A DNA stretch of 64,000 nt from the NCBI GenBank assembly GCA_026004395.1, contig BPJB01000001.1:82630-146629 (forward strand), given 5' to 3'. A program made the position numbers and the translations under genes. The notes beneath the pieces were generated by a model, which worked only from the letters and a program-made list of their open reading frames with translations, made no database searches and was not told where the DNA came from. Positions 27,692-30,703 of this stretch are shown in pieces; within the stretch, counting starts at the first letter, position 1; each line of letters begins with the position of its first letter. The DNA is from Patescibacteria group bacterium. GTDB taxonomy: Bacteria > Patescibacteriota > Microgenomatia > Levybacterales > UBA12049.

Positions 27692-28870
27692 ATGGCACGA
27701 AAAAGAATAAGTGAGTACAAAGCAAAAATGCTTCTTTTTGAAGCATTAGGTCTTCCCTATCAGGGAATACAGGTTAGAAATTCTGATCTATCTTTTTATA
27801 CTTCTCTAGATAATACCAAGACCTACGTTGTGAAGGTTGATCAAGGAGTGAAAAAACGATTTAAGCAGGGACTTATTCATTTAGATATTCACTCTGAAAT
27901 GCTTTTAGATTCAATAGAGGACTTGCGAAACAAAGGTTACTCTCAGTTTCTGATTGAACCATATTACAAGCACAAAGCAGAAGATGAGCGCTATCTTGCA
28001 CTAGAGCGAATCAGAGAAGGAATAGCCGTTTATGTCTCAAAAAAGGGAGGAATAGATATTGAAGAACAACAAAACTTTGTTCAACAATTTATTATTCCTC
28101 AAGATACCTATCAGGAAGTAGCCAAATATATTGGAATAGATGCCAAATTGGTTGAAAAAATTATAAAAGTAATGGATAAGTTCTATATCTCCTTTCTTGA
28201 GATAAACCCACTAGTTGTTAAAGAGAACAAGCTTTTATTTTTAGATCTTGCAGTTGAAGTAGACAGTGCAGGATCGTTTTTTGTAAAAGATGCGTGGAAT
28301 GAGAGAGATTTTATAGATTATGCTGTAGAGCATACAGTTGAGGAAGCGGTAGTTGAGGAATTATCCACTAGAAGTCAGGCTTCTTTTAAACTTGTCGTAC
28401 TTAATCCCAATGGATCTATTTTCATGCTTCTTTCTGGAGGTGGAGCAAGCATTGTCCTTGCTGATGAAGTATATAATCAAGGATTTGGAAAAGAACTTGC
28501 AAATTATGGAGAGTACAGCGGCAATCCCAATGCAGAGGAAACCTATATCTATACCAAACAGCTTTTGAGCTTATTATTAAAGTCAAAAGCACGAAACAAA
28601 ATTTTAATTATTGCCGGTGGAGTTGCTAATTTTACTGATATTCGAATTACATTTAGAGGTATTATTCAAGCGCTTACTGAGGTGAAGCATGAGCTTCAAA
28701 AACAAAATATTAAGGTGTATGTCAGGCGAGGCGGACCATATCAGGAGGAAGGACTTGCAATGATGAAAAGCTTTCTTGAAAAAGAAAAACTCCTTGGTGA
28801 CGTATCTGGACCCGAGATGGTACTAACCGATATCGTAGGAGAAGCTTTGCGCTTTCTAAAATCAGAATAG
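27692..28870 (+). CDS. aclB: ATP-citrate lyase small (beta) subunit, ATP-grasp/SucC-like
   Basis: Long identity blocks with the N-terminal half of human ACLY and Chlorobium AclB: FLIEPYYKH, ELANYGEYSGNPNAEETY, ILIIAGGVANFTDIRITFRGI, VYVRRGGPYQEEGL. Confidence 0.8.
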   Translation: MARKRISEYKAKMLLFEALGLPYQGIQVRNSDLSFYTSLDNTKTYVVKVDQGVKKRFKQGLIHLDIHSEMLLDSIEDLRNKGYSQFLIEPYYKHKAEDERYLALERIREGIAVYVSKKGGIDIEEQQNFVQQFIIPQDTYQEVAKYIGIDAKLVEKIIKVMDKFYISFLEINPLVVKENKLLFLDLAVEVDSAGSFFVKDAWNERDFIDYAVEHTVEEAVVEELSTRSQASFKLVVLNPNGSIFMLLSGGGASIVLADEVYNQGFGKELANYGEYSGNPNAEETYIYTKQLLSLLLKSKARNKILIIAGGVANFTDIRITFRGIIQALTEVKHELQKQNIKVYVRRGGPYQEEGLAMMKSFLEKEKLLGDVSGPEMVLTDIVGEALRFLKSE

Positions 28871-28909
28871 TTTAAATTTTAAAAATCAAATATTTAAGAG
28901 ATTTAAATT

Positions 28910-30703
28910 ATGTTTAACTTGGAAAAATTAAAACAAATACATCCCAGCATTATTGTTATTGGTAGTCATCCAGCAATTATTCAATCAATGTTGGATTTTG
29001 ACTATCTTTCAGGCAAAACTGATCCTAGTGTAAAAGCTATTCTTGCTGGTAATCGGAGATTTGAAAGATATTTTTTTGGTAAAAAAGAACTACTTATTCC
29101 AGTTTTCCCTACTCTTTCTGATATCCCTCAGTCAATTTTGGAGAGTATAACTTATTTTTTTAACACAACTTCAGGAAGAAGAGTTTTTGAATCAACACAG
29201 GAGGCACTTCAACTCTTACCCAATCTTTTAGGAGGGGTAATTTTTGCAGAAAATGTACCCGAGATTCATGCTTTAAAACTGTTTAATCTCAAAGAGAAAT
29301 CTAAAAAATTTTTTATTATTGGTCCCTCAAGTGTGGGATTGCTTATTCCTTCCTATCTTAAATTAGGTGCGATTGGAGGTGTTGATTATAGACAGCTTAT
29401 TGCATCTGAGGTCTTCACATCAGGCAATGTTGCCATTTTCTCAGCATCAGGAGGAATGACAAATGAGATTATCCGGATTGTTACTCAACAAGGAAAGAGG
29501 TTAAGTTTTGCTCTTGCGTTTGGTGGTGATCGCTTCCCTATTTTAACACCCAAAGATGCATTCTTAGCGGCAGAGGATGATAGCCAAACAGAGGCTATAC
29601 TCTATTTTGGTGAGATTGGTGGAACAGATGAATATGATCTTGCGAAGCTGCTACAGGAGAGAAAAGTAACAAAACAAGTAATTTGTTATATAGGAGGAAC
29701 AGTGGCAGAACTTTTTAAGACTCCTCTCCAATTCGGCCATGCAAAGGCAATGGCAAAAAAGGGCGAAGAGACAGCAAGAGCGAAAAGAGATGCACTCAGA
29801 AATGCAGGTGCCAGTGTGGCAGAGTCATTTTCAGAGTTTGTCAATATGATAAAATCACTTCCATCTGTTTCCAATAAACCAAGGAAAAACTATACTATCT
29901 ATATGAATGATTTAAAAGATCGACGCAGTGCATTAATTACAACAAGTATTTCTTACGATAAAGAAGGTAATCTATTAATTTTAGGTGAGGATCTTTTGGA
30001 ATTCACTAAATCACACTCATTTGCTAGCATTGTCGCTTGTCTTTTCTTAGGTAAGAAGGAGATTTCAACTGATCTTGAAGAATTCGTAGACTTTACTTTG
30101 AGAATTCTTGTGGACCATGGTCCATATGTTGCAGGAGCAGTAAATACAATTATTACGGCTCGATCTGGGCGTGATCTTGTTTCCAGTCTTGCCTCAGGAC
30201 TCTTAACTATTGGTCCACGTTTTGGAGGAGCTATTAATCAAGCAGCTGCCAATTGGTTAAGAGGAGTGAGAGATAATATTGCTCCATATGATTTTGTCGA
30301 AGAATTTGCAAGAAGTAGAGAATATATTGCAGGGATTGGACATAGAAAATATAGAGTTGATCTACCGGATCCACGTGTTGAGGAGATTATGAAATTTGTC
30401 AAAAGAGTTGATGATCAACGTTTTACAAATTATGCAAAAGCAGTTGAGGAGATTACAGTTGCAAAAAAGGGGAATTTAATTTTGAATATTGATGGAGCAA
30501 TTGCTGCAGTATTATTGGATATCCTCAAGGAGAAAGAAGAGATGACGTATGACAGCCTACAAAGACTTATTGATAATGAATTTTTTAATGCACTTTTCGT
30601 TCTTTCAAGAAGTGTAGGATTTATTGCCCATTTTCTTGATCAGAAACGTTTAGATCAAGGACTTTTTCGACTGGATGAAGAAGATGTAGCGTACGTAAAA
30701 TAA
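28910..30703 (+). CDS. aclA: ATP-citrate lyase large (alpha) subunit (CoA-binding/SucD-like plus citryl-CoA lyase domain)
   Basis: Matches the ACLY C-terminal half: [48 protein letters not shown] (phospho-His loop), [79 protein letters not shown]. Confidence 0.8.
   Translation: [597 protein letters not shown]

Follow-up and report, generated by a model that had tools for sequence, protein, structure and literature searches.

A eukaryote/Methanothrix-type ATP-citrate lyase in a Levybacterales genome: catalytic loop, descent and gene neighbourhoods

Background

The described ATP-citrate lyases (ACLs) most similar to the one considered here are ACLY-A/B of Methanothrix concilii (PDB 6hxi, 6znw) and human ACLY (6hxh, 6poe and others). 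The human protein is fused: its N-terminal half contains the ATP-grasp and citrate-binding domains, while its C-terminal half carries the CoA-binding domain, the phospho-histidine loop and the citryl-CoA lyase (CCL) domain. Chlorobium limicola has an ACL of two subunits with the same domains and chemistry (AclAB, PDB 6hxj), which works in a complete reductive tricarboxylic acid (rTCA) cycle. Citryl-CoA synthetase (CCS) with its separate lyase (CcsAB/Ccl of Hydrogenobacter; PDB 6hxq, 6hxp) and succinyl-CoA synthetase (SCS), in which the lyase is absent, share with ACL a common ancestry, the phospho-histidine mechanism, and the ATP-grasp and CoA-ligase domains. We report here on a pair of genes, aclB and aclA, located in a 64,000-nucleotide stretch (called 'the window' below) of contig BPJB01000001.1, positions 82,630 to 146,629 of the forward strand, from a Patescibacteria group bacterium. 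A model reading the letters of this DNA had proposed that the pair encodes a complete ACL; we refer to its note as the original prediction.

ACLs have been reported before from the Candidate Phyla Radiation (CPR). Sieber et al. (2019, mBio, PMC6851277) described a two-subunit ACL in the closed genome of a Gracilibacterium, a CPR host devoid of a TCA cycle, and proposed that it converts external citrate into acetyl-CoA and oxaloacetate. The loop of this enzyme is canonical (GHAGA), its sequence resembles archaeal proteins most, and the genome also encodes putative citrate transporters. A 2025 groundwater study found aclAB among the genes enriched in Saccharimonadia metagenome-assembled genomes (MAGs). 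The MAG to which the window belongs, KatS3mg089, consists of one contig (BPJB01000001) of 1,084,101 bp with 1,029 coding sequences (CDS) and a GC content of 0.356 (Kato et al. 2022, Front Microbiol, PMC9671151, Table S3), and is classified as p__Patescibacteria; c__Microgenomatia; o__Levybacterales; f__UBA12049 (PMC9671151). This fits the small-genome, AT-rich host that had been predicted. In KatS3mg089, Kato et al. list aclAB but no further gene of the rTCA cycle, and they regard the organism as probably not an autotroph; for aclAB in other Patescibacteria they cite Probst et al. 2017 (PMC9671151).

The protein encoded by aclA is identical over 597/597 residues to GenBank entry GIW61256.1, 'MAG: ATP citrate lyase [Patescibacteria group bacterium]' (BLASTP). 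Between this record, Kato et al. and Sieber et al., both the observation and the idea of scavenged citrate have precedents. Kato et al. deal with the same sequence and give no physiological role, histidine-loop signature or neighbourhood for it. The gene pair is therefore already annotated and published.

Results and discussion

Identity of the gene pair

The two genes are co-oriented on the + strand and, in the list of open reading frames (ORFs) of the window, separated by 39 nt. aclB (27692-28870, +) encodes a beta subunit of 392 aa and aclA (28910-30703, +) an alpha subunit of 597 aa; both ORFs lie exactly where the original prediction had placed them, and all three peptide strings quoted there are found in the 597-aa translation. 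The AclB protein matches the Pfam ATP-citrate synthase ATP-grasp family (PF24948, 98 bits for a cut-off of 83) and the ACL citrate-binding family (PF16114, 199 bits). AclA has a CoA-binding/CoA-ligase part (PF00549) and a C-terminal citrate-synthase-like domain of 250 aa (PF00285), which corresponds to the CCL domain and is fused to the rest in one protein.

A phmmer comparison with PDB sequences aligned residues 10-596 of AclA continuously with residues 495-1094 of human ACLY (E = 2.4e-110, 373 bits). M. concilii ACLY-B came close to this score (356 bits), followed at a distance by C. limicola AclA (220 bits), SCS alpha subunits (86 bits at most), the Hydrogenobacter CCS small subunit (71 bits) and CCL (66 bits). 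The ranking was similar for AclB: 213 bits with M. concilii ACLY-A, 205 with the N-terminal half of human ACLY, 140 with the Chlorobium subunit and 61 with the CCS large subunit, the alignments to the first two covering residues 42-386. With the NCBIfam SCS models, scores were far below the cut-offs (alpha, 114 vs 336 bits; beta, 55 vs 376). Since the ACLY scores largely exceed those of SCS and CCS in the PDB comparison, and the cut-offs of the NCBIfam SCS models are far from reached, the pair is assigned to ACL rather than to either of these enzymes. SCS (SucCD), whose alpha subunit of about 290 aa lacks a lyase domain, was ruled out by these low scores and by the presence of a CCL domain in AclA; CcsAB with Ccl was ruled out as well, given the fusion of this domain to AclA and the 71 bits of the CCS small subunit compared to 373 for ACLY.

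The region 27692-30703 thus encodes a complete heteromeric ACL (AclB+AclA, EC 2.3.3.8) with all catalytic residues present, and this enzyme is of the eukaryote/Methanothrix type, not of the Chlorobium type. Domain order is the same as in M. concilii and human ACLY, AclB corresponding to the N-terminal and AclA to the C-terminal half of the latter; the differences are the division into two subunits, as opposed to the fused human protein, an AclB shorter by some 30 residues than in M. concilii and human, and the loop sequence described below. The original prediction had announced long identical blocks shared with the two halves of human ACLY. The domain-wise correspondence holds, but the wording was too strong, as identity is approximately 38-39% to fused eukaryote-type representatives (P0136, P0138), with strongly conserved motifs. 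Likewise, of the label 'eukaryote/Chlorobium-like' only the first half is retained.

Residue-level alignment to human ACLY was then used to locate the catalytic positions. The phospho-histidine loop QFGHAKAMA (29729-29755, +) aligns with the human QFGHAGA, and H277 of AclA (29738-29740, +) with the catalytic His760. Two positions further, K279 (29744-29746, +) occupies a place held by glycine in canonical ACL and SCS (GHAGA). The active-site region of the lyase (30113-30496, +) includes H403 in DHGP (30116-30118, +), H478 in GIGHR (30341-30343, +) and D528 in LNIDG (30491-30493, +), which align with human H900, H975 and D1026, respectively. E114 of AclA (in FAENVPE) aligns with human Glu599. 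A loss of the catalytic histidine or of lyase residues would have spoken against an ACL; all were intact, and the lyase residues and E114 are conserved across 80 CPR AclA sequences. Of the 597 columns of AclA, 83 are invariant across 80 sequences, a sign of strong purifying selection on a canonical architecture.

Motifs of AclB that its 75 CPR homologues have kept are VVKVDQGVKKR (27827-27859, +), VANFTD (28616-28639, +) and VRRGGP (28715-28738, +), together with FLEINPL, LDLAVEVD, LSGGGAS and NYGEYSGNP. The motifs of the ATP-grasp domain (VVKVDQ, EINPL, LDLAVEVD) and of the citrate site (GEYSGNP, VANFTD, VRRGGP) align with the human ones, and are near-invariant (n = 75). In the human enzyme, the residues that bind citrate are Asn346 and Thr348 in ANFT, Arg379 in RRGGP, and the GEYSG loop.

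Proposed function and gene neighbourhoods

We favour, with a probability of roughly 70%, the reading that this ACL is native to its Levybacterales genome and that, in a non-autotrophic organism, it splits citrate to provide anabolism with acetyl-CoA and oxaloacetate; we infer both the direction of the reaction and the source of citrate. Scavenged citrate is a plausible substrate, by analogy with what was earlier proposed for the CPR Gracilibacterium (PMC6851277). Considering the conserved residues, ATP bound in the ATP-grasp domain of AclB would phosphorylate His277 of AclA, and the phospho-histidine loop would carry the phosphate to citrate in the citrate-binding domain of AclB. Citryl-phosphate and CoA would then yield citryl-CoA, to be split into acetyl-CoA and oxaloacetate by His403, His478 and Asp528 of the C-terminal citrate-synthase-like domain of AclA. 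The enzyme would play a role like that of the eukaryotic cytosolic ACLY, turning externally acquired citrate into acetyl-CoA and oxaloacetate in a cell with very few other routes to both. Acetyl-CoA may serve amino-sugar N-acetylation towards UDP-N-acetylglucosamine (UDP-GlcNAc) and N-acetylmuramic acid (MurNAc), and oxaloacetate may be converted through aspartate into diaminopimelate (DAP) and lysine. Gene neighbourhoods suggest that cell-wall precursor synthesis is possibly a main consumer of these products.

The neighbourhoods were analysed across 81 loci, in which the related loci (designated by L numbers) were the best 80 of 116 GTDB species representatives, and the identity of neighbours was checked with Pfam and NCBIfam. 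In 46 of the 81 loci, at least one of nine cell-wall or aspartate-family genes was found at most three genes away from aclBA. When loci were collapsed at 70% AclA identity, such a gene was present in 24 of 41 clusters, compared to a crude random expectation of approximately 6%. A gene for MurB (TIGR00179, 190 bits vs a cut-off of 144.5) lay no further than three genes away in 26 loci, most of them Levybacteria-like, and Ddl was a neighbour in 4 loci. Ten Saccharimonadia loci contained GlmM (TIGR01455, 463 vs 448), arranged in three or more ways and in 8 cases with a GNAT acetyltransferase alongside, and GlmS (744 vs 418 bits) occurred in 9 loci, in 5 of them at no more than three genes' distance. 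In a sub-clade of Levybacteria (L012, L016, L021), aclBA is followed downstream by genes for aspartate kinase (385 vs 209), DapA (355 vs 206), DapB (158 vs 122), DapL (559 vs 365) and LysA (308 vs 298). These figures are inflated by inherited synteny. Even so, the neighbours vary from locus to locus in identity and order while belonging to the same pathways, in Microgenomatia as well as Saccharimonadia, and a functional link to cell-wall genes is plausible. No mention of such a linkage was found in the literature searched.

The Saccharimonadia loci follow the order aclB-aclA-glmM-GNAT or glmM-GNAT-aclB-aclA (L074, L076, L077, L078 and L080, around 10001-13750; also L060 and L070). The GNAT protein, of 204 aa, has a weak match to Acetyltransf_3 only, and PDB E-values of 0.017 or above pointed to no informative relative. 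We conjecture that it is an amino-sugar N-acetyltransferase, acting for instance on glucosamine phosphate, which would use the acetyl-CoA made by ACL.

Several points weigh against citrate cleavage for anabolism. Neither the 64-kb window nor the genes adjoining the operon in the 80 related loci yielded a citrate transporter. Synteny with housekeeping genes may persist by descent in small genomes, and the collapse at 70% identity removes phylogenetic non-independence only partly. An unaltered chemistry is assumed for the GHAKA loop, in spite of its invariant Gly-to-Lys change next to the catalytic histidine. Finally, the neighbouring tdh and kbl genes, as a source of acetyl-CoA, and the phosphoenolpyruvate (PEP) carboxylase gene, as a source of oxaloacetate, fit the reverse reaction equally well. 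As for transporters of the major facilitator superfamily (MFS), encoded in the window (59828-61012) and in L060, they were rejected as candidate citrate carriers, their best scores being with drug-efflux types.

The reverse reaction is the alternative that survives best, although we consider it unlikely. ACL would then operate mainly as a reversed, ATP-conserving citrate synthase (acetyl-CoA + oxaloacetate + ADP + Pi -> citrate + CoA + ATP), with acetyl-CoA derived from threonine through Tdh/Kbl, or from pyruvate, with oxaloacetate supplied by PEP carboxylase, and with a gain in ATP, or in citrate for glutamate or for export. The ACL reaction is near equilibrium, the free energies of citrate synthase and of ATP hydrolysis being similar, and this is compatible with a reversed flux. 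Tdh-like and Kbl-like genes, for enzymes whose products are acetyl-CoA and glycine, adjoin aclBA in four to five loci, in both lineages (L007, L021, L030, L056, L069), with scores just below the equivalog cut-offs, and a gene for an archaeal-type PEP carboxylase (TIGR02751, 487 vs 146 bits) is present four to five genes upstream in five loci (L038, L044, L045, L047, L067). The lack of a citrate transporter in the places inspected also goes in this direction and, more speculatively, the CPR-specific lysine close to the phospho-histidine could shift the equilibrium of phosphoryl transfer.

Several observations argue against such a reversal. Giving up an oxaloacetate for a single ATP is uneconomical, since ADP-forming acetyl-CoA synthetase and Pta-Ack achieve the same gain with no oxaloacetate consumed. 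No gene for aconitase or isocitrate dehydrogenase turned up in the window or in the loci, and further rTCA genes are absent from the MAG according to Kato et al. (PMC9671151), so that citrate would be left with no obvious fate. Moreover, the dominant neighbours (glmM-GNAT, murB, ddl, the DAP pathway) make use of acetyl-CoA and aspartate, not of citrate.

Some further details of these loci can be reported. The Tdh-like and Kbl-like genes (the latter for a glycine C-acetyltransferase) flank aclBA at 6588-8794 and 12816-14048 in L007, and at 11804-16671 in L021. L007 also encodes a homocitrate-synthase-like HMGL protein, another user of acetyl-CoA, and in L021 the cluster goes on to dapL and lysA. 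The block upstream of aclBA in L044, L045, L047, L067 and L038 (for example, 168-3951 in L047) comprises PEP carboxylase, a dCTP deaminase, and a secreted protein of 561 aa with no Pfam family; PEP carboxylase represents a second oxaloacetate-forming enzyme beside ACL. Several neighbours of about 510 aa were initially candidates for PEP carboxylase, but by eye they look like GMP synthase, and the genuine archaeal-type enzyme is limited to the five loci above.

The GHAKA loop

The loop QFGHAKAMA is present in all 80 CPR loci, and FGHAKA in all 120 of the closest database matches. To our knowledge, the glycine at position His+2 is otherwise conserved across ACL, SCS and related ligases. Among 150 diverse representatives, the loop read FGHAGA in 53 cases and FGHAGS in 14, together with rare singletons such as GHAAA or GHAWA; FGHAKA and FGHAKS were confined, among the representatives examined, to sequences of the CPR clade. 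That GHAKA stays invariant at identities as low as 48% argues for selection. One sequence (P0123, 604 aa, from a JGI metagenome) is placed inside the GHAKA clade and yet has the canonical GHAGA loop, apparently by reversion as judged from its position; it is a natural comparator for the effect of the lysine. As a speculation, a lysine at His+2 could pair with the phosphoryl group.

The GHAKA signature was not mentioned in the literature searched; 'GHAGA' served as a diagnostic of ACL in Sieber et al. 2019 (PMC6851277). The Levybacteria/Saccharimonadia clade differs from the Gracilibacterium enzyme by its GHAKA loop, and by the fact that no transporter was found near the operon.

Such an unusual loop leads to ask whether the GHAKA clade has acquired a new function on the retained ACL fold, with another acid or another phosphoryl donor as substrate, 'ATP-citrate lyase' being then a misannotation. 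In support of this possibility, the change from glycine to lysine is found in 80/80 loci and 120/120 matches, while nearly all other family members keep the glycine, and the ATP-grasp domain of AclB is barely above the Pfam threshold (98 vs 83 bits). However, the clade has conserved all the residues that align with those of the human protein for citrate binding (ANFT, RRGGP, GEYSG), for the ATP-grasp domain, for E599 (E114 here) and for the CCL triad; the citrate-binding domain PF16114 is well recognized (199 bits), and the 83 invariant columns of AclA (n = 80) extend this conservation. We conclude that a change of function is quite improbable.

A broader proposal, which we put forward tentatively and with more doubt than confidence, is that the GHAKA clade is a specialised ACL. 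It may offer host-dependent cells that lack a TCA cycle a eukaryote-like way of channelling scavenged citrate, through acetyl-CoA and oxaloacetate, into peptidoglycan precursors (the acetyl groups of GlcNAc and MurNAc, and aspartate-derived DAP and lysine), or else act as a reverse, ATP-yielding citrate synthase. The lysine might in either case be a mechanistic adaptation, and aclAB a marker of lifestyle rather than of the rTCA cycle.

Distribution and descent

A word-indexed search gave 2,153 scored homologues, of which the best 120 were examined. All 120 were AclA of the two-subunit type, at 59-95% identity, and the few named ones belonged to Candidatus Levybacteria. In a scan of GTDB species representatives, at least 116 had a homologue; the best 80 of these were titled Levy(i)bacteria, Saccharibacteria/Saccharimonadia, Woesebacteria, Roizmanbacteria or 'Patescibacteria group'. 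Across the 120 closest matches and the 80 GTDB loci, identity ranged from 48 to 95%, and all sequences were of the CPR type. aclB was directly upstream of aclA in 79 of the 81 loci, the other two ending at contig edges. The original prediction considered ACL as restricted to a few lineages (Chlorobi, Aquificae, Nitrospirae, eukaryotes), a statement contradicted by these at least 116 GTDB species, among Levybacteria, Saccharimonadia, Woesebacteria and Roizmanbacteria, and by literature reports since Probst et al. 2017. Dozens of GTDB MAGs titled 'uncultured Gammaproteobacteria bacterium' (L001, L002, L006, L008-L010 and others) also have a CPR-type ACL in the Levybacteria synteny (fusA-aclBA-murB); these titles seem to be placeholders, or labelling errors made in a bulk deposit.

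To collect outgroups, 1.84 billion representatives were searched exhaustively with HMMER, and trees were built by neighbour-joining (NJ) on simple distances, with 71 full-length sequences. The CPR-type sequences formed a single clade (bootstrap 97/100), of which Dojkabacteria (P0127) are a deep branch. The nearest groups are of the two-subunit type with a canonical loop, and include a DPANN archaeon (P0135, Norongarragalinales) and a cluster containing Saccharibacteria (P0143). Fused eukaryote-type proteins come next, such as P0136 from Paraphysoderma. The grouping of the CPR clade with the nearest two-subunit GHAGA group had a bootstrap of 8/100 only. As the canonical GHAGA type also occurs in a Saccharibacteria genome (P0143 cluster), the CPR hold at least two ACL lineages.

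The earlier suggestion of a horizontal acquisition can be examined in this context. A recent transfer, whether its donor was a eukaryote, an archaeon or an rTCA autotroph, would agree with the eukaryotic and archaeal origin of the nearest solved structures, with the DPANN archaeon (P0135) in the near outgroup, and with the archaeal origin inferred by Sieber et al. for the separate Gracilibacterium ACL (PMC6851277). However, the composition and codon usage of the two genes are indistinguishable from those of neighbouring genes. In a comparison with the genes of the window, z-scores for aclB and aclA were -0.03 and 0.05 for GC, 0.87 and -0.54 for GC at third codon positions (GC3), and -0.39 and -0.98 for synonymous codon distance, all within 1 SD (GC in the window, 0.29-0.40; gene mean, 0.36). 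aclB and aclA are therefore native in composition. In addition, the order fusA-ddl-aclBA is common to relatives; the 120 closest matches and the 80 GTDB loci are all of the CPR type, with the aclB-aclA order kept and a lineage-specific synteny; and the sequences make up one CPR clade with the derived GHAKA signature. A recent acquisition is thus very improbable. Given one CPR clade with a shared GHAKA, any transfer predates the divergence of Microgenomatia, Saccharimonadia and Dojkabacteria; since the sister group of the CPR clade has no bootstrap support (8/100), an ancient transfer at the base of this clade is possible.

Gene context in the window

No TCA enzyme was found among the 36 ORFs of the window that were scanned outside the ribosomal-protein block (28 with a family, 8 without), in agreement with the original prediction, and no other rTCA gene is present in the whole MAG according to PMC9671151. 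The partners expected in an rTCA cycle, such as 2-oxoglutarate:ferredoxin oxidoreductase, fumarate reductase and pyruvate synthase, were thus all missing from the 36 ORFs. Although ACL is the usual marker gene of the rTCA cycle, and is scored accordingly by automated pipelines, autotrophic CO2 fixation by this cycle is effectively refuted by the absence of TCA/rTCA enzymes from these 36 ORFs, by the report of the MAG authors of no other rTCA gene and probably no autotroph (PMC9671151), by a genome of just 1.08 Mb and 1,029 CDS, and by an enzyme of the eukaryote/Methanothrix type rather than that of the Chlorobium autotroph, whose complete cycle is lacking in KatS3mg089. Without a reductive TCA cycle, the enzyme does not serve CO2 fixation.

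Upstream of aclB are ddl, for a D-alanine--D-alanine ligase (26571-27668, +; Pfam; NCBIfam NF002528, 475 bits for a cut-off of 262), and fusA, for elongation factor G (EF-G; 24414-26522, +, from its translation with the start set at ATG 24414). Both share the + strand with aclBA; 48 nt separate fusA from ddl, and 23 nt separate ddl from aclB. To judge by spacing alone, ddl is probably in the same transcription unit as aclBA. No convincing terminator was detected inside fusA-ddl-aclB-aclA, a promoter and terminator scan of 24000-31500 giving results no better than with shuffled sequence. The order fusA-ddl-aclB-aclA is common to the window and L001-L003, and fusA, which is upstream of aclBA in 26 loci, is a conserved anchor of the Levybacteria arrangement. 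The mechanical ORF of EF-G starts at TTG 24204, with about 70 implausible extra residues; translation probably begins at ATG 24414, and the divergent pilus-like genes (PilO-like, 23002-23622) are then followed by an intergenic gap.

On the 3' side of aclA is a convergent gene of the ICMT/PEMT family; the predicted placement of the pair between ddl and an ICMT-like gene was borne out by Pfam and NCBIfam. Further on come genes for a PIG-L family deacetylase and for a GH18 protein, and then tuf. The pair made of the PIG-L/LmbE-family de-N-acetylase and the chitinase-like GH18 protein (31380-33175, +) recurs in L001-L003 and L018, and its presence beside ACL suggests scavenging or remodelling of GlcNAc-containing polymers.

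The window is also dense in cell-envelope genes (7816-8838, -; 11471-12610, +; 12618-19991, -; 53605-54699, +; 57603-58529, -), from families that include a FemAB-family peptidyltransferase, LytR-CpsA-Psr, DUF2298 with two PMT_2 glycosyltransferases, and two proteins of the beta-lactamase/penicillin-binding family. A nickel superoxide dismutase (SOD) gene, sodN, is located at 4803-5333 (+; PF09055, 148 bits; TIGR02753, 156 bits vs a cut-off of 90), and a Mn/Fe-type SOD is encoded two to four genes upstream of aclBA in related Saccharimonadia loci (for example, 7799-8398 in L078). These dismutases are a hint of exposure to oxygen. Scans of the window for tRNA genes and Rfam families gave no matches.

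Conclusions

The original prediction was correct in its reading of the sequence and partly so in its interpretation. As originally stated, the finding, of an enzyme that is unusual in so tiny a bacterium with no TCA cycle, is already on record and in itself changes nothing. It nevertheless touches on the way genomes are read, as a pipeline in which aclAB stands for 'rTCA carbon fixation' will wrongly assign autotrophy to many Patescibacteria, a point for which Kato et al. corrected (PMC9671151). An ATP-consuming citrate lyase is present in more than 100 species of ultra-small, host-dependent bacteria. The conserved GHAKA loop, taken with the repeated proximity of aclBA to cell-wall precursor genes, provides a concrete and testable hypothesis on the supply of acetyl-CoA and oxaloacetate in these organisms, a question that bears on their host dependence and on cultivation strategies, such as supplementation with citrate.

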